A stretch of DNA of 18,507 bases. It comes from a virus (taxonomy: Duplodnaviria; Heunggongvirae; Uroviricota; Caudoviricetes). Where the stretch lies: IMG/VR virus record IMGVR_UViG_2778261154_000007, positions 1 through 18,507 of that record; one strand, 5' to 3'. A program made the translations under genes and the position numbers. Under the pieces are notes generated by a model. The model was not told the origin of the DNA. It did no database searches and saw nothing but the letters and a program-made list of their open reading frames with translations. This document shows, one piece after another, positions 1,003-17,300 of the stretch; position 1 is the stretch's first letter; every line of letters begins with the position of its first letter.

Positions 1003-2436
1003 ATGAATAAGAAATCGTTATGGAAGCTAATTCTGATATTAGCGATCCCATGTATTATTGGCTTTATGCCAGCTCCGGCAGGATTAAGCGAACTGGCGTG
1101 GGTGCTTTTTGGTATTTACCTGGCGGCCATTGTGGGGCTGGTTATCAAGCCTTTCCCGGAACCTGTCGTACTGTTAATTGCCGTTGCTGCCTCAATGGTG
1201 GTGGTCGGTAACTTATCCGACGGTGCGTTTAAAACCACCGCCGTATTAAGCGGTTACTCTTCAGGTACCACCTGGCTGGTGTTCTCGGCGTTTACCTTAA
1301 GCGCCGCATTTGTGACCACCGGTTTAGGTAAACGTATTGCCTATCTGCTGATTGGTAAAATCGGTAACACCACGCTGGGTCTGGGTTACGTTACGGTATT
1401 CCTCGATCTGGTACTGGCTCCGGCAACACCGTCTAACACCGCGCGTGCGGGCGGCATTGTGTTACCGATCATCAACAGCGTGGCGGTGGCTTTGGGGTCC
1501 GAACCGGAAAAAAGTCCGCGTCGTGTCGGACATTACCTGATGATGTCCATTTACATGGTCACCAAAACCACCAGCTATATGTTCTTTACCGCAATGGCGG
1601 GGAACATTCTGGCGCTGAAAATGATCAACGACATTCTGCACCTGCAAATTAGCTGGGGTGGATGGGCGCTGGCAGCCGGATTGCCGGGCATCATTATGCT
1701 GCTGGTCACCCCGCTGGTGATTTACACCATGTATCCACCAGAAATTAAGAAGGTGGATAACAAAACCATCGCTAAAGCGGGCCTTGCCGAACTAGGACCG
1801 ATGAAAATCCGCGAAAAAATGCTGCTCGGTGTCTTTGTGCTGGCGCTGCTGGGCTGGATTTTCAGTAAGTCTCTGGGGGTTGATGAATCCACCGTGGCAA
1901 TCGTTGTTATGGCAACCATGCTGCTGCTGGGTATCGTTACCTGGGAAGACGTGGTTAAAAATAAAGGCGGCTGGAATACCTTAATCTGGTACGGCGGTAT
2001 TATCGGCTTAAGCTCCTTATTATCGAAAGTTAAATTCTTCGAATGGTTAGCTGAAGTCTTTAAAAATAACCTGGCATTTGATGGTCACGGTAACGTTGCT
2101 TTCTTCGTTATTATTTTCCTCAGCATTATCGTGCGTTATTTCTTCGCTTCCGGTAGTGCCTATATCGTTGCTATGTTACCGGTATTTGCCATGCTGGCGA
2201 ACGTCTCCGGCGCACCGTTAATGTTAACCGCGCTGGCACTGTTGTTCTCCAACTCCTATGGCGGCATGGTTACTCACTATGGCGGCGCGGCAGGTCCGGT
2301 CATCTTTGGCGTGGGTTATAACGATATTAAATCCTGGTGGTTGGTCGGTGCGGTACTGACGATATTAACCTTCCTGGTGCATATCACCCTCGGCGTGTGG
2401 TGGTGGAATATGCTGATCGGCTGGAACATGCTGTAA
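1003..2436 (+). CDS. ybhI: DASS-family (divalent anion:sodium symporter-like) inner membrane transporter
   Basis: 477-aa ORF, highly hydrophobic with many predicted TM helices; position between ybhH-like and ybhJ-like genes. Confidence 0.8.
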   Translation: MNKKSLWKLILILAIPCIIGFMPAPAGLSELAWVLFGIYLAAIVGLVIKPFPEPVVLLIAVAASMVVVGNLSDGAFKTTAVLSGYSSGTTWLVFSAFTLSAAFVTTGLGKRIAYLLIGKIGNTTLGLGYVTVFLDLVLAPATPSNTARAGGIVLPIINSVAVALGSEPEKSPRRVGHYLMMSIYMVTKTTSYMFFTAMAGNILALKMINDILHLQISWGGWALAAGLPGIIMLLVTPLVIYTMYPPEIKKVDNKTIAKAGLAELGPMKIREKMLLGVFVLALLGWIFSKSLGVDESTVAIVVMATMLLLGIVTWEDVVKNKGGWNTLIWYGGIIGLSSLLSKVKFFEWLAEVFKNNLAFDGHGNVAFFVIIFLSIIVRYFFASGSAYIVAMLPVFAMLANVSGAPLMLTALALLFSNSYGGMVTHYGGAAGPVIFGVGYNDIKSWWLVGAVLTILTFLVHITLGVWWWNMLIGWNML

Positions 2437-2580
2437 ATATACTCGTCATACTTCAAGTTGCATGTGCTGCGTTTGCGTTCGCTCACCCCAGTCACTTACT
2501 TATGTAAGCTCCTGGGGATTCACTCACTTGTCGCCTTCCTGCAACTCGAATTATTTAGAGTATATCCATTTATTATCTTT

Positions 2581-2602
2581 CTGCGCACTTCACGGTGCGC
2601 AG
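2581..2602 (+). promoter_or_regulatory. Perfect 8-bp inverted repeat (CTGCGCAC-N6-GTGCGCAG) just upstream of the ybhJ-like start
   Basis: Read directly: ctgcgcac ttcacg gtgcgcag. No following T-tract, so more likely an operator or RNA structure than an intrinsic terminator. Confidence 0.3.
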
Positions 2603-2618
2603 ATATCTGGAGCATTTG

Positions 2619-4880
2619 ATGATCAAGTTATCTGAAAAAGGCGTGTTTCTCGCCAGTAATAACGAAATAATTGCCGAAGAACATTTCACCGGCGAAATTA
2701 AAAAAGAAGAAGCCAAAAAAGGCACTATTGCCTGGTCTATTCTCTCTTCTCATAATACGTCCGGAAATATGGATAAACTTAAAATTAAGTTTGATTCATT
2801 AGCCTCTCACGATATTACCTTTGTTGGTATTGTACAGACCGCTAAAGCGTCCGGAATGGAACGTTTCCCGCTGCCGTATGTGCTGACCAACTGCCATAAC
2901 TCACTCTGCGCCGTCGGCGGCACCATTAACGGTGATGACCATGTTTTTGGTTTATCGGCAGCTCAGCGTTATGGCGGTATTTTTGTGCCTCCGCATATTG
3001 CGGTCATCCATCAATATATGCGTGAGATGATGGCAGGCGGCGGCAAAATGATCCTCGGGTCAGACAGCCACACCCGTTACGGTGCATTAGGGACAATGGC
3101 AGTCGGTGAGGGCGGCGGTGAGTTGGTAAAACAGCTGCTTAATGACACCTGGGATATCGACTATCCGGGAGTTGTTGCGGTGCATCTGACCGGAAAACCA
3201 GCGCCGTATGTGGGGCCGCAGGATGTGGCGCTGGCTATCATCGGTGCCGTGTTCAAAAACGGCTACGTCAAAAACAAAGTGATGGAATTCGTAGGTCCCG
3301 GTGTTGCTGCGCTCTCTACCGATTTCCGTAACAGCGTTGACGTTATGACCACTGAAACGACCTGTTTAAGTTCTGTCTGGCAAACCGATGAAGAAGTCCA
3401 TAACTGGCTGGCGCTGCACGGTCGCGGCCAGGATTACTGCCAGCTTAACCCTCAACCGATGGCGTACTACGATGGCTGCATCAGCGTTGATTTAAGCGCC
3501 ATCAAACCAATGATTGCGCTGCCGTTCCACCCGAGCAACGTGTATGAAATCGACACACTGAACCAGAACCTGACCGACATTCTGCGTGAGATTGAAATTG
3601 AGTCCGAACGCGTGGCGCACGGTAAAGCCAAACTCTCGCTGCTGGATAAAGTGGAAAATGGTCGCCTGAAAGTGCAGCAGGGGATTATCGCGGGCTGTTC
3701 TGGCGGTAACTACGAAAACGTCATCGCGGCGGCGAATGCACTGCGCGGTCAATCCTGTGGCAATGACACCTTCTCGCTGGCAGTTTACCCGTCATCACAG
3801 CCGGTGTTTATGGATCTCGCCAAAAAAGGTGTGGTAGCAGATTTGATTGGCGCAGGCGCAATCATCAGAACCGCGTTCTGCGGCCCATGCTTTGGCGCGG
3901 GCGATACGCCAATCAACAACGGATTAAGTATTCGCCACACCACGCGCAACTTCCCGAACCGCGAAGGCTCTAAGCCAGCTAATGGGCAGATGTCAGCGGT
4001 GGCGTTGATGGACGCTCGTTCTATCGCTGCGACTGCGGCAAACGGTGGCTATTTAACCTCTGCCAGCGAACTTGATTGCTGGGACAACGTGCCGGAGTAC
4101 GCCTTCGATGTAACGCCGTATAAAAACCGTGTTTATCAGGGCTTTGTGAAAGGGGCAACTCAGCAACCGCTGATTTACGGACCGAACATTAAAGACTGGC
4201 CGGAATTGGGTGCGCTGACTGACAATATCGTCCTGAAAGTGTGCTCGAAGATCCTCGACGAAGTGACCACCACCGACGAACTGATTCCTTCCGGTGAAAC
4301 CTCTTCTTATCGTTCAAATCCGATTGGTCTGGCGGAGTTTACCCTGTCACGCCGCGATCCCGGTTATGTTGGCAGAAGTAAAGCGACTGCTGAGCTGGAA
4401 AATCAGCGTCTGGCGGGGAATGTCAGCGAGCTGACAGAGGTGTTTGCGCGCATTAAGCAGATTGCTGGTCAGGAGCATATTGATCCGCTGCAAACTGAAA
4501 TTGGCAGCATGGTATATGCGGTGAAACCAGGCGATGGTTCTGCGCGTGAACAGGCGGCGAGCTGCCAGCGTGTGATTGGCGGTCTGGCGAATATTGCCGA
4601 AGAGTACGCGACTAAACGCTACCGTTCTAACGTCATCAACTGGGGGATGTTACCGCTGCAGATGGCGGAAGTGCCAACCTTTGAAGTGGGGGATTACATT
4701 TACATCCCTGGCATTAAAGCGGCGCTGGATAATCCGGGTACGACGTTTAAAGGTTATGTGATCCATGAAGATGCGCCGGTAACGGAAATTACGCTCTATA
4801 TGGAAAGTCTGACTGCTGAAGAGCGCGAGATTATCAAGGCGGGTAGTTTGATTAACTTCAATAAAAACCGTCAGATGTAA
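2619..4880 (+). CDS. ybhJ: Aconitase-family hydratase/dehydratase (753 aa)
   Basis: Track ORF begins at GTG 2595, but ATG 2619 is preceded by GGAG (2608-2611) at good spacing and gives 753 aa. Glycine- and cysteine-containing motifs (GSDSHT, GCSGGN, CGPCFG) are typical of aconitase-family enzymes. Confidence 0.75.
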
Positions 4881-11209: not shown

Positions 11210-11503
11210 TCAGTCATTACTGATAGCGCCATAGCGTGAGCGGTAATTACGCAGGCGCGGGTCAATTTCAGGGAAGTGGGTATATGTGGCTTTGCGGAAT
11301 GGTCGGATTGATGTCTGGTAAATTCGCTCTCGTTCTTCTTTCTCTGCAAGCCATATACAGTGGCGAAATTCCTTTTCCTCTTTCGTTTCCTGCGGTAGCG
11401 ACATTATCCGATCGTAGTTTTTTCTGAATTTATCCAGCACCTCCGATACGGAATTGCCGGAACAGCGGCGCGGGTCATCCGCACCATACAGAGGCGCTGG
11501 CAT
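11210..11503 (-). CDS. Hypothetical phage protein (97 aa), basic
   Basis: ORF in operon context between the Sak4 module and downstream small genes; weak RBS, start uncertain. Confidence 0.4.
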   Translation of the reverse strand: MPAPLYGADDPRRCSGNSVSEVLDKFRKNYDRIMSLPQETKEEKEFRHCIWLAEKEERERIYQTSIRPFRKATYTHFPEIDPRLRNYRSRYGAISND

Positions 11504-11526
11504 AATGGGAGCCTTATTTTCAGTAA

Positions 11527-12114
11527 TCAGAAAGGAGGGTAATCGTTCTGGCTGTAACCATAATCATCTGCATGATTCTGGCTTACGTTTTTAGCGCGAT
11601 TGTCTTTATCTTTGAGGCTGGCAACCATGTTGGCGATAGTTTCTGGTTGCTTGCCTTCCGACTTTTCTTTAAGGGTTTGACCTGTTTGTGCAATAAACGG
11701 GATGCGTATTTCCATCTGGTAGCTGTCTGCGCCAGTCTTTTTGTTTGTGGTTAATACTTTCTGGAGCACTAACCCGATTTTCTTTCCATGAAATTCAGGA
11801 GCAACAAATTTACTGGCGGAAACCATATGTTGCGTTAACTGCTTAATCCCAACACACCCCATCATGGCATGAACGACGTTTGCACCAAACTTGTTTTCCG
11901 TTCCGTCATTTTTCTGAACACAAACGCTAAGATATTGGATTTTACGTCCGTCGTCGGATTCGCCAGAAAGCTCAATAAATTTTGCGCCTTTTTCTGATTG
12001 CTTTAGTTCTGCTTCAGTAATGGTAATGATATGAGCGCCAGTTTCGTTAATAAAACCACCTTGCCCTGCGGTCAGTGCTGCTTCTTCGTTATAAGTAAAA
12101 ATCACGTTGCTCAT
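11527..12114 (-). CDS. Sak4-associated phage protein (possibly DUF669-family recombination accessory protein), 195 aa
   Basis: Start overlaps the Sak4-like stop by 4 nt (translational coupling); the position and size fit the partner gene of Sak4-type modules. Confidence 0.5.
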   Translation of the reverse strand: MSNVIFTYNEEAALTAGQGGFINETGAHIITITEAELKQSEKGAKFIELSGESDDGRKIQYLSVCVQKNDGTENKFGANVVHAMMGCVGIKQLTQHMVSASKFVAPEFHGKKIGLVLQKVLTTNKKTGADSYQMEIRIPFIAQTGQTLKEKSEGKQPETIANMVASLKDKDNRAKNVSQNHADDYGYSQNDYPPF

Positions 12115-12791
12115 GCGGCGTTTTCCTTAATTTGATGAACATTATTGATGCCGTAGTAATCACAAACAGTGGCATCGACGAAAGAGAGATCGTTATCAAT
12201 CTCATTGGAGTCAAACATTCCCATTGGGGATTTAACAGTGTCTGCACCGTTGTTTTTCGTGGTGAAAAAGAACTGGTCATCACGGGTAAGGGTGCGAAGA
12301 ACTATAGTAAACATGCCTTCGACAGTGATTTTCTCGTCCAGCATTTTTCCTATAGTTTTCATTTTCACGCGCCCCATAGGGGTTTCTTCGGTGTGCGCAA
12401 GAAAATAGACTCTCAGGTCATCTGGCGCATCCTGTGCAGCCTTAATCACCTCCCATGCGTGGCGGCCTATCTCAGTAAATTTATCAAACGATTTTTCTTC
12501 TGAGCGGCGCATAAACTCATTGCTCATCACATACTGGAAGTCATCAACAATAACGATTCTTTTCCCGTATTCGTGAGCACGCTTAATTACGGCAACTATT
12601 ACGTCCCATTTATCAGTGGTAACTACGGTTCCTTTTTTTGCTCTGGCATCCCATGCCAGCCAGTCTTTTGATTTAAATGGCAGCGGCTTGCCTATTGGTT
12701 TTATAAGTATTGCTTCCTCTGGATTGATATTTCTCATGCTGGTTGATTTTCCGGTGCCAGACTCACCGAGTATTAATGTCGCAGTTCCCAT
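12111..12791 (-). CDS. Sak4-like RecA-fold P-loop ATPase (phage single-strand annealing/recombination protein), 226 aa
   Basis: N-terminal Walker A GESGTGKS and Walker B-like hhhhDD (RIVIVDD); size and position in the early-left operon where lambda carries exo/bet. Confidence 0.7.
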   Translation of the reverse strand: MGTATLILGESGTGKSTSMRNINPEEAILIKPIGKPLPFKSKDWLAWDARAKKGTVVTTDKWDVIVAVIKRAHEYGKRIVIVDDFQYVMSNEFMRRSEEKSFDKFTEIGRHAWEVIKAAQDAPDDLRVYFLAHTEETPMGRVKMKTIGKMLDEKITVEGMFTIVLRTLTRDDQFFFTTKNNGADTVKSPMGMFDSNEIDNDLSFVDATVCDYYGINNVHQIKENAA

Positions 12792-12799
12792 AATTTGCC

Positions 12800-12988
12800 T
12801 CAGAATGGTAATTCGGATGGGGAGGAAAGAAACTCGCGCTCATTCATGCGCTCTCTTTGTGCCTGCCATAAACAAAGTTGTTTCTTTGATTTATCTCCCG
12901 CTTTACGCCAGTAACGAGCCTCAGCAATGTGATATTCTCTTTTTAATCGACTTAACTCTGGAGTTTTCGCCAGCTCTACCGGAATCAT
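12800..12988 (-). CDS. Hypothetical small phage protein (62 aa)
   Basis: Start set to second ATG (MIPVELAK...), which is preceded by GGAGG at 5 nt; overlaps the end of the kil-like ORF. Confidence 0.35.
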   Translation of the reverse strand: MIPVELAKTPELSRLKREYHIAEARYWRKAGDKSKKQLCLWQAQRERMNEREFLSSPSELPF

Positions 12989-13098
12989 TTTGACCTCCAT
13001 TTTTTATAGGCTTCGACGGCTTCACGAAACATCTTTTCATCGCCAATAAAAGTGGCGATAGTGAATTTAGTCTGGATAGCCATAAGTGTTTTATCCAT
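12985..13098 (-). CDS. kil: Kil-like small protein (37 aa) at the kil position downstream of cIII
   Basis: ATG overlaps the cIII stop region; translation MDKTLMAIQTKFTIATFIGDEKMFREAVEAYKKWRSK; position and overlap as for lambda kil. Not in the track as a separate ORF (below 60 aa). Confidence 0.45.
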   Translation of the reverse strand: MDKTLMAIQTKFTIATFIGDEKMFREAVEAYKKWRSK

Positions 13099-13231
13099 TT
13101 TTGGGAACTCCTGGCTGATTAAGTACGTCGATGAGTCGTTTCCATCCGTCACGTAATTTACGGGTGATTCGTTCAAGTAAAGATTCGGAAGGGCAGCCAG
13201 CAACAGGCCACCCTGCAATGGCATATTGCAT
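13091..13231 (-). CDS. cIII: cIII (FtsH inhibitor / CII stabiliser), 46 aa
   Basis: Manual translation of the minus strand: MQYAIAGWPVAGCPSESLLERITRKLRDGWKRLIDVLNQPGVPKNG, matching lambda CIII through its conserved central helix; RBS AGGAG upstream. Not in the track (below 60 aa). Confidence 0.8.
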   Translation of the reverse strand: MQYAIAGWPVAGCPSESLLERITRKLRDGWKRLIDVLNQPGVPKNG

Positions 13232-13264
13232 GGTGTGCTCCTTATTTACGCTTTAAATTGCTCC

Positions 13265-13292
13265 GTGTATTCACTCGTTGGAATGAATACAC
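13265..13292 (-). promoter_or_regulatory. 9-bp stem hairpin (GTGTATTCA-N10-TGAATACAC) in the leader upstream of cIII
   Basis: Read directly; no T-tract follows on either strand, so not an intrinsic terminator. Lies between the 207-aa gene stop and the cIII RBS. Confidence 0.35.
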
Positions 13293-13336
13293 AGTGCAGT
13301 GTTTATTCTGTTGTTTATGCCAAAAATAAAGACCAA

Positions 13337-13960
13337 CTATGCGGCCTCGGAAGGAAGTCCAATCATCTTATTCAAATCTTCTACCCGTAAAGCAGGAAGT
13401 GCTGTACTTGCTTTATCTGCTTCTTTTGGTAGCAATTCTTTGCTTTCAGGCCAAACTTCAATAAGTCGCTTAACTGTTGTGACTGAGTTCAAAGCAGCCC
13501 ATACATTTGATTCGATATCCTTTTTCCTGGCTTTAAGTTTTTGTTGCAATGCGCAGATTTCATCAAACCTTTTTGTTATTTCGTGTTCTGCGCTAAACAT
13601 GCATTTATCTCTGGTCGGAGTAGGGAGCAATATATCTTCGCCGTTGCCGTCTTTCCCATATGAATACCATCCAACCCTTCTGCCAGATACAGTCAGATAA
13701 ATTGAAGTAGAACGAACATCGCATGAGTAAAATGAACATCCCATCTTTTCAAGTTCTTCACTTATAGCTACCAACTTGGATGATAACTGATCCACTTCCT
13801 CAGTTTTCTTCTTCCCGCCAAACGCAACAACTCTGGCGTCAAGTGCAAGCTGGTTCTTTAGCTTTGTTACTTCTTCAAGTTCAGTGAACACCCCGGACTT
13901 AATTAAAGCGTTGCGTGCTATTACTTCTTTTATTCTCGTTGTTAAGCGGATTGATGACAT
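13337..13960 (-). CDS. Hypothetical protein of unknown function (207 aa) in the N-cIII accessory slot
   Basis: Start moved to ATG 13960 (MSSIRLTT...), preceded by GAGG; no TM segments, predicted helical/coiled regions; no motif I recognise. Confidence 0.55.
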   Translation of the reverse strand: MSSIRLTTRIKEVIARNALIKSGVFTELEEVTKLKNQLALDARVVAFGGKKKTEEVDQLSSKLVAISEELEKMGCSFYSCDVRSTSIYLTVSGRRVGWYSYGKDGNGEDILLPTPTRDKCMFSAEHEITKRFDEICALQQKLKARKKDIESNVWAALNSVTTVKRLIEVWPESKELLPKEADKASTALPALRVEDLNKMIGLPSEAA

Positions 13961-13971
13961 ATTAATTCCTC

Positions 13972-14298
13972 TCAAATAAGTGGTTTGCTGCCTGATTTCA
14001 TTTTCTGGCGACCAACACAAGTCACACCCATTTCACTGCGTGGCTTGCTGTACCATGTGCGCTGATTCTTGCGCTCAATACGTTGCAGGTTGCTTTCAAT
14101 CTGTTCGTGGTATTCAGCCAGCACCGTAAGGTCTATCGGATTCAGTGCGCTTTCTACTCGTGATTTCGGTTTGCGATTCAGCGAGAGAATAGGGCGGTTA
14201 ACTGGTTTTGCGCTTACCCCAACCAACAGGGGATTTGCTGCTTTCCATTTAGCCTGTTTCTCTGCGCGACGTTCGCGGCGGCGTGTTTGTACATCCAT
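13972..14298 (-). CDS. N: Antitermination protein N (108 aa) with arginine-rich motif
   Basis: Translation from ATG 14298 (RBS AGGAG): MDVQTRRRERRAEKQAKWKAANPLLVGVSAKPVNRPILSLNRKPKSRVESALNPIDLTVLAEYHEQIESNLQRIERKNQRTWYSKP... matches lambda N; the track ORF extends spuriously upstream. Confidence 0.9.
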   Translation of the reverse strand: MDVQTRRRERRAEKQAKWKAANPLLVGVSAKPVNRPILSLNRKPKSRVESALNPIDLTVLAEYHEQIESNLQRIERKNQRTWYSKPRSEMGVTCVGRQKMKSGSKPLI

Positions 14299-14455
14299 CT
14301 GGATTCTCCTGTCAGTTAGCTTTGGTTGTGTGTGGGAGTCGTAGTCCTGAACGAAAACACCCCGCAATGGCACATTGGCAGCTAATCCGGATTCGCACTT
14401 CCGGCCAATGCTTCGTTTCGTATCACACACACCAAAGCCTTCTGCTTTGAATGCT

Positions 14456-14485
14456 GCCCTTCTTCAGGGCTTAATTTTTAAGAGC
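14456..14485 (-). promoter_or_regulatory. nutL (boxB GCCCTGAAGAAGGGC; boxA-like TGCTCTTA)
   Basis: Minus-strand sequence gctcttaaaaattaagccctgaagaagggc; boxB is a perfect hairpin identical to lambda nutL boxB. Confidence 0.8.
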
Positions 14486-14518
14486 ATCACCTTTATGGTG
14501 GTCAGTGCGTCCTGTTGA

Positions 14519-14590
14519 TGTGCTTAGCATCACCGCCAGTGGTATTTATGTCAACACCGCCAGAGATAATTTATCACCGCAGATGGTTAT
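14519..14590 (-). promoter_or_regulatory. pL promoter with oL1-oL2-oL3 operators (lambda immunity specificity)
   Basis: Three 17-bp sites: cATCACCGCCAGTGGTA (14528-14544), CAACACCGCCAGAGATA (14552-14568), TATCACCGCAGATGGTT (14572-14588); -35 TTGACA and -10 GATGCT on the minus strand with 17-bp spacing. Confidence 0.8.
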
Positions 14591-14737
14591 CTGTATGTTT
14601 TTTATATAGATTTATTTTTTGCCGGGGTGTGTTGCTGGGGTTGGTGATCGAGAGATCAGAATTGCACTGTTTAGTGAGTTGTATCTATTAATTTTAAAAT
14701 AAATACAATTGGTTATGTATTTTTTTGGGGGCGTGAG

Positions 14738-14765
14738 GCAAAGAAAACCCGGCGCTGAGGCCGGG
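14738..14765 (-). terminator. Candidate intrinsic terminator downstream of the rexB-like gene (tIMM-like)
   Basis: Hairpin CCCGGC-GCTGAG-GCCGGG (14748-14765) followed on the minus strand by GTTTTCTTTG. Confidence 0.5.
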
Positions 14766-14768
14766 TTG

Positions 14769-15206
14769 CTATTTGTTTGAGAATTTTAGAAGTTGAAAAA
14801 GTATGATGCTTATATGCATCATTGATGAAGCTGACAGGCCGATCGATAAGGATGGCAACAAGGCAATTGGTTGCTTACTGGTGGCCATTAAAAACAAACC
14901 CATAAAAAAAACAATGCCAAGTTCCGCAAAGGTCAGTGCATACAGAATGATGACAGATGTCATATATCCGTAAGCCTTTACTTTTTGCATGTTTTTTCCT
15001 CTGATGCCGATGACGAATGTCAACGCGGCAATGAGTATTGCGATAGTAGTCCCTGCATATGAAGATATAGCTGCGCCCAGCGCGTCTCTGTGCTCGGTGA
15101 ACGAAATTGATGAGGCAACGCTACGGAAAATGCAGTAGACGACAATAGTTAAAAGTATTGGTAAAACGAATAGCAATACGCCGGGAACGATCCTGTGCTC
15201 TCTCAT
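14769..15206 (-). CDS. rexB: RexB-like integral membrane protein (145 aa, four predicted TM helices)
   Basis: Occupies the rexB position (between pL/oL and rexA, same strand as cI). Four hydrophobic segments (LLFVLPILLTIVVYCIF; TTIAILIAALTFVIGI; YMTSVIILYALTFAELGIVFFMGLFLMA; LSIGLSASSMMHISIILFQLL). Size is close to lambda RexB (about 144 aa). Confidence 0.6.
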   Translation of the reverse strand: MREHRIVPGVLLFVLPILLTIVVYCIFRSVASSISFTEHRDALGAAISSYAGTTIAILIAALTFVIGIRGKNMQKVKAYGYMTSVIILYALTFAELGIVFFMGLFLMATSKQPIALLPSLSIGLSASSMMHISIILFQLLKFSNK

Positions 15207-15236
15207 GCTTCCTCCATCACCCTTAGGTATTCACTC

Positions 15237-16067
15237 TTACTCGTCTTCACAAAAATCTTTATAACTTTTCGTTATGACATTTTTCATTCTTATATAGCAA
15301 ATTTCCATTTCCTCGGCAATTTCTTCATTTGTCGATTTGTAAATGTTGGCGCTGATATGCCCCTTGCTTGAAAGGTAGTAGTCAGTTAACAAATCAGCTG
15401 CGTACTCCTTTGCTTTAAGGTGTATGTCGCTATGAGAATCATCGGCATTACGAATCAGTTCCTTTGACATGTTGCTAATATTTCTCATTCTTTTGGGTTT
15501 TATTGTTATTTCTATACCTTCAAGAAGCTCTTCTTCGATAGTTTCTATCCCGGCGGCCCTCAGTAGAGGAGAAAAAAGCTTGGAGCCAGACTCAACTCTT
15601 AAGGTTGTTCTACCGATGAACTCCATGTCGAGAGCATCATCTCTGGTTACGTCTCTCATCAGAGGTTCTAAACATAGTTTGAATGGATTTGTTATGTTCA
15701 ATTTATTAGATAAGTAAATTTCAAGCTCACGAATTCTTGGCCCGTGTTGAGTGCAGGCGTAACCAACGATGCCATCCTTGATCAACAGGAATGATGGAAA
15801 TGCTAGCGTTTCGTCACTACCTAATACGTTTTTAATTTCATCGACTGATAGTGTGGTTTTATTGACCCTTTTAACCAAGTCTGAGTCGTATGTTTTTGTT
15901 ATTAAATAACATTCTCTGCTGATGTGATGAGCGAATATAAAGTAATCATCAATCTCTAAGGCATTATTTTTTGCTTTGATTACCTGTTCGGATAAGCCTG
16001 ACACCAAATCAATAGGGAAACGTTCCTTACCGTTTTGTTGATAGAAAGCGTAAAAATTAAGTTTCAT
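15237..16067 (-). CDS. rexA: RexA-like soluble protein (276 aa), partner of the membrane protein
   Basis: Occupies the rexA position immediately downstream of cI on the same strand. Size is close to lambda RexA (about 279 aa); conserved-looking blocks FPSFLL, LEPLMRDVTRDD, FIGRTTLRVE, YYLSSKGH, EEIAEEMEICYIRMK. Appears much more divergent from lambda than the flanking cI and N. Confidence 0.6.
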   Translation of the reverse strand: MKLNFYAFYQQNGKERFPIDLVSGLSEQVIKAKNNALEIDDYFIFAHHISRECYLITKTYDSDLVKRVNKTTLSVDEIKNVLGSDETLAFPSFLLIKDGIVGYACTQHGPRIRELEIYLSNKLNITNPFKLCLEPLMRDVTRDDALDMEFIGRTTLRVESGSKLFSPLLRAAGIETIEEELLEGIEITIKPKRMRNISNMSKELIRNADDSHSDIHLKAKEYAADLLTDYYLSSKGHISANIYKSTNEEIAEEMEICYIRMKNVITKSYKDFCEDE

Positions 16068-16198
16068 ATATCAATCCGTTATATCTGGCGTAAGTCATCA
16101 TATCGTTAAAGTACATAAAATTTCTTTTTGCGTTGATGTAATGAATGGCAGCTTGAAAACCTGCTGGTAATCCTACGCCCGGAGCACTTTTCCATCCA

Positions 16199-17224: not shown

Positions 17225-17300
17225 CTTACACATTCCAGCCCTGAAAAAGGGCATCAAATTAAACCACACCTATGGTGTATGTATTTATTTGCATGCATTC
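17225..17300 (+). promoter_or_regulatory. nutR (boxA CGCTCTTAC, boxB GCCCTGAAAAAGGGC) followed by the tR1 region
   Basis: ccccgctcttacacattccagccctgaaaaagggc read directly; boxB is a perfect hairpin. Confidence 0.75.

Follow-up and report, generated by a model that had tools for sequence, protein, structure and literature searches.

The window, by which we mean the entire 18,507-nt stretch of viral DNA analyzed here, carries a single gene between those for antitermination protein N and cIII. The features of this locus and of its operon are as follows, with the basis of each assignment in parentheses.

13337..13960, minus strand: Nmad5-family coding sequence, 207 aa plus stop codon (ORF list, Pfam, PHROG, RefSeq, homologues)
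13968..13971, minus strand: Shine-Dalgarno sequence GAGG, 7 nt 5′ of the ATG and abutting the N stop codon (reading of the sequence)
13972..14298, minus strand: antitermination protein N of the lambda type, directly upstream of the Nmad5 gene (Pfam N36, E = 1.1e-24)
14456..14470, minus strand: nutL boxB, an exact match to GCCCTGAAGAAGGGC (motif match; lambda annotation and homology)
13091..13231, minus strand: cIII, the next gene downstream of the Nmad5 gene (ORF list, RefSeq, lambda alignment)
13257..13340, minus strand: 84-bp lambda-like segment, where the mosaic joins the Nmad5 insert on its left side (blastn against lambda)
11210..12791, minus strand: recombination module encoding a Sak4-like annealing ATPase, a DUF669 SSB-like protein, and the anti-RecBCD protein Abc2 (RefSeq, domain matches)

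The longest ORF at the locus extends from a TTG codon over positions 13337..14020 of the minus strand, and an ATG at 13960 within it yields the 207-aa product. We take this ATG as the true start because of the spacing of the GAGG, the N-terminus M-S/T-x-R-L-T common to the homologues and the 207-aa product, and the coordinates of the RefSeq coding sequence WP_038341315.1 of Escherichia coli VL40, which is the 207-aa ATG version. Over positions 12900 to 14500, the window matches the sequence of E. coli VL40 (NZ_CM177011.1) with 100% identity. The stop codon of N, TGA at 13974..13972 on the minus strand, lies directly 5′ of the GAGG. The ORF boundaries given in the original prediction (13337 to 13960) therefore coincide with the RefSeq coding sequence, and its description of a good ribosome-binding site (GAGG at 13971..13968, 7 nt from the ATG) and of a soluble product also stands: the protein has a GRAVY of −0.30, a pI of 8.6, and a net charge of +2.6, which makes it mildly basic, and no hydrophobic 19-residue window or transmembrane segment was found in its 207 residues. 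The window contains no second copy of the gene.

The ORF is a real, conserved gene, far beyond what chance would produce. It is not a chance ORF because it matches Pfam PF18757 (Nmad5) with 239.8 bits (E = 3.9e-71; residues 4 to 203 on model positions 1 to 206; gathering cutoff of 27 bits) and PHROG 1965 (E = 1.6e-82), a profile built from its relatives retrieves 2,270 cluster representatives, and the ratio dN/dS is 0.24 to 0.30 among the 64 distinct alleles of 80 close prophage loci, indicating purifying selection. Internal stop codons interrupt the gene in just two of these 80 loci (L018 and L067). The possibility raised with the original prediction, that the ORF is a fused remnant of its neighbors, gives way to a full-length conserved Nmad5 gene.

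The profile matches identify the product as a full-length, single-domain member of PF18757, and nearly all of the top 150 Nmad5 representatives have lengths of approximately 190 to 230 aa, the few shorter ones being partial matches. It was previously described as an unknown protein with no recognizable motif, but RefSeq already lists the identical gene of E. coli VL40 as “Nmad5 family putative nucleotide modification protein.” This allele is present in 211 of 5,426 complete E. coli genomes, a patchy distribution, and the name was borne by all eight matches sampled across the ranking of the 211. The window protein has all the conserved positions of the family (InterPro IPR040835, “Nucleotide modification associated domain 5”) and shares its RefSeq name; however, that name derives from the gene neighborhood in some hypermodifying phages, and the locus in the window lacks such neighbors. 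The Nmad families were reportedly defined by Iyer and colleagues in 2013. A search of the NCBIfam HMMs with the protein returned no match, nor did the defense HMMs of PADLOC-DB v2, which strongly matched the neighboring RexA and RexB. The “NMAD” domain of the DefensePredictor paper was considered and is Nmad2 (PF18753), not Nmad5. In the literature on phages HK542, HK244, and mEp235 and on DUF2800/DUF2815, nothing was found on the Nmad5 gene. Public databases thus already list the gene together with its family and name, and it is not a new element; what is added here is the mosaic relationship to lambda at the nucleotide level, the lack of support for the modification label among lambdoid Nmad5 proteins, the repeated occurrence of SSB, polymerase, and recombination genes nearby, and the mapping of a Tmn-escape residue.

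Comparison with lambda delimits the insert. The kil-cIII segment of the window (12996 to 13248) is 96% identical to lambda 33228 to 33480, the 84-bp segment at 13257 to 13340 is 96% identical to lambda 34005 to 34087, just downstream of ral, and positions 13997 to 15065, which include N, nutL, oL/pL, and part of rexB, are 84% identical to lambda 35062 to 36121. The intervening 13341 to 13996 have no blastn similarity to lambda. From these junctions, the Nmad5 gene occupies the ral/orf28/sieB interval; relative to lambda, ral-orf28-sieB is replaced by the Nmad5 gene and ea10 is deleted. The proposal that the gene sits in the variable N-cIII slot that holds ral, sieB, and ea10 in lambda is thus upheld at nucleotide resolution. 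The lambda genes ral, orf28, sieB, and ea10 are positional counterparts in the same interval of the pL operon, but Nmad5 has no sequence similarity to Ral, SieB, or Ea10 by Pfam or blastn and is much larger than Ral. SieB is a membrane-associated exclusion protein, whereas Nmad5 has no membrane segment. A weak terminator-like hairpin (13329 to 13348, minus strand; seven pairs, three of them G-C, followed by a T-run) overlaps the stop codon of the Nmad5 gene, at the margin of the 84-bp segment common with the lambda DNA just downstream of ral.

A search of positions 12900 to 14800 revealed no sigma-70-like promoter, and for this reason expression from pL under N antitermination is the natural reading of the locus. 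The gene would accordingly be placed for early pL- and N-dependent transcription, as the original prediction had it, given the exact nutL boxB, the pL/oL homology, and the lack of a sigma-70-like promoter of its own. The nutR boxB is at 17238 to 17252. Past the Nmad5 gene, the operon continues with cIII, kil, and the genes for the Sak4-like annealing ATPase, the DUF669 SSB-like protein, and Abc2. This recombination module is operon context and at most supplies a candidate partner; it stands where lambda has exo/bet/gam, and its DUF669 protein ends in an SSB-type ...DYPPF tail.

Several other features of the element were recorded. RexA (276 aa) and RexB (145 aa) are encoded between cI and pL (14769 to 16067, minus strand) and are divergent, with PADLOC matches of E = 1.4e-116 and 4.1e-54, respectively. 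Positions 15066 to 16197, comprising rexA and part of rexB, have no blastn similarity to lambda, and the adjoining cI is 98% identical to that of lambda; RefSeq labels the RexB of the window “biopolymer transporter ExbB.” The host prophage, a lambdoid element with its integrase beside ybhC, is degraded and rearranged, interrupted by IS1A, fragments of IS2, and two IS600 copies and having truncated genes for TerL, Rha, AntA/B, and a replication initiator (L002, 1 to 23000). In its nin region, RefSeq annotates a RelE/ParE toxin with an HTH partner (approximately 2085 to 2712, plus strand) and, between NinB and NinE, a NUMOD4-domain protein (approximately 2927 to 3529, minus strand).

Close relatives with 95 to 97% nucleotide identity directly follow N in HK542 (HK542_033), HK244, mEp235, PhiR12, and many Stx1a- and Stx2a-converting phages, with no annotation beyond “hypothetical.” These orthologues occupy the same place directly after the antiterminator as the gene in the window, but most have a different N allele (in 62 of 80 loci, one of the Pfam N_peptide type) and different downstream cargo; HK542, for example, has the same Nmad5 gene with an Erf module, whereas the window has Sak4-like/DUF669/Abc2. 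The 80 loci are E. coli prophages (L009 to L088), in which the commonest gap between antiterminator and Nmad5 gene is 11 nt. In eight of them the upstream gene encodes a 112-aa arginine-rich protein, which we presume to be Nun-like. At least three antiterminator alleles (lambda N, N_peptide-type N, and the 112-aa protein) precede the same Nmad5 allele, and the junction between N and Nmad5 is therefore a recombination boundary. The variability previously ascribed to the slot is borne out by these differences in upstream N alleles and downstream cargo, and the locus shows the behavior of a hotspot. Because lambda lacks the gene and only 211 of the 5,426 E. coli genomes carry the allele, it is dispensable for lambdoid phages as a group.

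Conservation was measured over 76 and then 150 diverse members, the latter with 25 to 60% identity to the window protein. Among the 150, at least 90% conservation is found at R5, I14, A18, R43, G48, G93, T162, L166, W170, P171, E172, E175, L176, P178, P189, L196, N197, G201, and L202, and N197 is invariant; the family positions R5, R43, G48, G93, T162, L166, W170-P-E172, L176, P178, L196-N197, and G201 are all present in the window protein. Two motifs stand out: S-V-T-T-V-K-[KR]-L-L-E-x-W-P-E-A-x-E-L-L-P at residues 159 to 178 and, after a variable linker, L-P-A-x-x-V-x-D-L-N-x-x-I-G-L-P at residues 188 to 203. No conserved catalytic constellation of His, Asp, Cys, or Ser was found among the 150 members.

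An AlphaFold model computed from the 150-sequence alignment (pLDDT of 90.2, pTM of 0.80) predicts a confident bundle of long helices with a beta-hairpin for residues 1 to 178: helices at 8 to 22, 24 to 47, and 50 to 72, a hairpin at 86 to 100, a long helix at 127 to 158, and two short helices at 163 to 176. The tail, residues 179 to 207, has a pLDDT of 50 to 63 although it is the best-conserved part of the sequence. Such a combination would be the signature of a tethered interaction motif; the low confidence could instead reflect folding that depends on oligomerization. In the viral structure library BFVD, the model matched other Nmad5 models (E down to 1.3e-11, TM of 0.73), and the matches comprised just Nmad5 members or uncharacterized phage proteins, such as those of eiAU and PhiJL001 gp23. 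Among solved structures there was no similarity to the model and no enzyme-like fold, and a profile search of PDB sequences returned only coiled-coil noise (E > 0.3). A profile search for domain fusions with the C-terminal module alone retrieved only Nmad5 fragments. The profile HMM and structure-based searches proposed with the original prediction thus had different outcomes, the former finding the Nmad5 family and the latter no characterized analogue. Because the predicted fold is helical, the flexible tail is conserved, and both catalytic residues and an enzyme-like fold are lacking, the protein probably acts in binding or scaffolding, with a linear motif on a flexible tether, and not as an enzyme.

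The contexts of more distant members were compared at 77 diverse prophage and phage loci, at 26 to 44% identity to the window protein. The commonest arrangement consists of an uncharacterized 300-aa protein, a DUF2800 PD-(D/E)XK nuclease, an Enc34-type SSB, Nmad5, and a family-A DNA polymerase (PolA), with a VRR-NUC-like endonuclease and an SNF2 helicase farther along. This module is found at approximately 33 to 36 of the 77 loci, on a single strand downstream of an S24 repressor. The 300-aa protein (PHROG 6784, no Pfam match) always precedes DUF2800 in the module and is at position −3 to Nmad5 (loci within L093 to L167). At three loci (L136, L138, and L007) the module is intact and Nmad5 has been relocated to its front, right after the repressor, which speaks for a linkage that goes beyond inherited synteny. 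Other arrangements include ERF-YqaJ-HNH-SSB(PF00436)-Nmad5; DNA polymerase ... ThyX-Nmad5 ... AAA-SSB in the Schitovirus Shigella phage B2; lambdoid loci with an N-type antiterminator upstream and Gam downstream; and copies in the nin region that adjoin Lar-like, dATP/dGTP-pyrophosphohydrolase, DUF1367, and NinG genes. AAA_24, RusA, dUTPase, NrS-1-type primase-polymerase, and VapE are further neighbors. After dereplication, the DUF2800/Enc34 module is represented in 3 of the 13 clusters that Nmad5 forms at 50% identity and in 10 of the 25 formed at 80%. The association with replication and recombination modules is thus recurrent, not universal, and no phage gene family was common to every context compared.

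Virulent phages with Nmad5 include Schitoviridae, Yuavirus, and Dhillonvirus. The proteins of the M6-like Yuaviruses (SN1_019; PAE1 Orf51) belong to the same family and keep the C-terminal motifs, but their genes sit near PolA in a thymidine-hypermodification cassette that encodes thymidylate-synthase-like, kinase, radical SAM, and PLP enzymes and an aGPT-Pplase; none of the cassette genes is present in the window. Of the contexts compared, just those of the Yuaviruses place Nmad5 among enzymes of DNA base modification. The Dhillonvirus protein is homologous to that of the window in its N-terminal helix and C-terminal half, with approximately 30% identity, and differs in having a larger, insertion-rich middle (254 aa from the likely start). 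Its gene stands alone on the opposite strand among the head genes of a virulent phage, whereas that of the window belongs to a pL operon.

The only functional data found for Nmad5 come from the Dhillonviruses SM_S22 and SM_A8 (Yamashita et al. 2025, PMC11846954). Mutants escaping on E. coli that expresses Tmn carried nmad5 substitutions, K296E in SM_S22 and K216E in SM_A8, and reversion of the mutation restored sensitivity to Tmn (PMC11846954). Deletion of nmad5 did not permit escape, the wild-type gene gave the phages no protection from Tmn, and cloning of the gene failed, apparently because of toxicity (PMC11846954). The authors label nmad5 “a DNA modification enzyme” (PMC11846954), a label taken from the family name and not derived from an assay. 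In our alignment of SM_S22 (PP627283) CDS0006, K296 falls in the stretch T-D-K-K296-L-I-K-A-W-P-E and corresponds to R165 of the window protein; this column holds K or R in 116 of the 150 members. The sole genetically implicated residue thus lies in what is predicted to be the most conserved surface motif of the family. A placement of the escape lysine in the tail, at V-K-T-L-N, was ruled out by the same alignment.

The explanation that we favor, tentatively and with somewhat less than even confidence, is that Nmad5 is an early, nonenzymatic binding protein whose ligand is either DNA or a component of DNA metabolism that many Gram-negative hosts have in common. The protein would be made early from pL after N modifies the polymerase at nutL and, as a soluble helical bundle, would act by binding, most likely not as an enzyme. 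Its binding surface may comprise the conserved patch T162-x-K-K/R165-L-L-E-x-W170-P-E172-x-x-E-L-L-P178 and the flexibly tethered, near-invariant C-terminal peptide L188-P-A...D-L196-N197-x-x-I-G201-L-P203. The partner could be a replication or recombination factor, for example a host protein of the SSB, replisome, or nuclease type, or DNA, and binding would favor replication or recombination of phage DNA or protect it. A host or nucleic-acid ligand is suggested because the tail motif is near invariant even though the contexts have no phage protein family in common; the reported toxicity of the homologue is consistent with such a ligand. What is inferred here is that the protein binds and does not catalyze, which partner it has, that this partner comes from the host, and that the phage benefits. 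Small host-directed inhibitors are also encoded in the replication modules of some phages, as with the class II genes of T7, so genomic context cannot tell whether Nmad5 helps replication or acts against the host.

An anti-host role of a particular kind, in which Nmad5 is a dedicated anti-defense inhibitor that binds an immune or restriction component of the host early in infection, as Ral does from the same slot in lambda, appears unlikely. The position in the ral/sieB slot, the predicted early expression, the patchy occurrence among E. coli prophages amid variable neighboring cargo, and the proximity of nin-region paralogues to Lar-like restriction-alleviation genes all speak for it. A substitution that escapes Tmn where a deletion does not suggests a protein able to interfere with defense, and the apparent toxicity of the Dhillonvirus homologue adds weakly to this (PMC11846954). 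The same study, however, found that the wild-type gene gives no protection and that its deletion yields no escape (PMC11846954), and synteny is kept inside the core replication modules of many unrelated phages, which is unusual for such cargo. Moreover, a pI of 8.6 and a net charge of +2.6 argue against a DNA mimic of the Ocr/ArdA type, for which there was also no structural match, and the model has no similarity to structures of characterized inhibitors. The rex genes nearby and the replacement of the sieB interval by Nmad5 could likewise point to a superinfection exclusion or defense gene expressed from the prophage as a functional stand-in for sieB. This we regard as highly improbable: the gene is oriented with pL and has no promoter-like site of its own, its product has neither a transmembrane segment nor a PADLOC match, and the family is common in virulent phages (Schitoviridae, Yuavirus, and Dhillonvirus).

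Two further readings would place the protein in the DNA metabolism of the phage itself. Directly upstream of Nmad5 in several lineages are SSBs of two unrelated families (Enc34 type and PF00436), and the operon in the window encodes a Sak4-like protein along with the DUF669 SSB-like protein that ends in the ...DYPPF tail. These neighbors are what would be expected if Nmad5 were a structural or adaptor protein that binds a product of the phage itself, for instance an SSB or annealing protein, and not a host factor; but in HK542 the same gene accompanies an Erf module, and the near-invariant tail recurs across contexts that have no phage family in common, making such a partner distinctly unlikely. 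An accessory role in DNA base hypermodification, as the Pfam and RefSeq names imply, is improbable. It would fit the thymidine-hypermodification cassette of the M6-like Yuaviruses, the ThyX neighbor in the Schitovirus, and the dATP/dGTP pyrophosphohydrolase, dUTPase, or DCD-like neighbors at some loci, but neither the 29.6-kb annotated prophage region nor HK542 encodes a hydroxymethylase, 5-hmdU kinase, aGPT-Pplase, or glycosyltransferase, most Nmad5 contexts lack modification genes, and the family has no conserved catalytic residues or enzyme-like fold. The DNA of lambdoid coliphages is not known to be hypermodified, which also counts against this reading.

A more specific form of the favored explanation, an early binding protein, is speculative and, in our estimation, doubtful: Nmad5 may be a misnamed, widespread, nonenzymatic adaptor that docks onto a universal host replication or repair protein, with the docking or its consequence monitored by Tmn, a KAP NTPase. 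If so, docking through the invariant C-terminal peptide and the basic patch around K/R165 would aid phages with very different replisomes, and Nmad5 would represent a novel class of accessory factor for phage replication and, for Tmn, a defined trigger. The family comprises more than 2,000 sequence clusters, found in Stx-converting and other lambdoid prophages and in N4-like, YuA-like, and Dhillon-type phages, under a database name that is probably misleading. The mapping of the Tmn-escape residue to the conserved patch offers concrete mutants in lambdoid phages, which are genetically easy.

The numbering of the escape residues reflects a difference in annotated start codons. The nmad5 coding sequence of SM_S22 (L169, 5005 to 6009, minus strand; PP627283) is apparently annotated with a start 80 codons too early, as homology to the family begins at M81 (“MRLTKD...”) and the upstream extension overlaps the scaffold gene. 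The early start would therefore account for the description of nmad5 of SM_A8 as “N-terminally truncated” (K216 versus K296) in PMC11846954.
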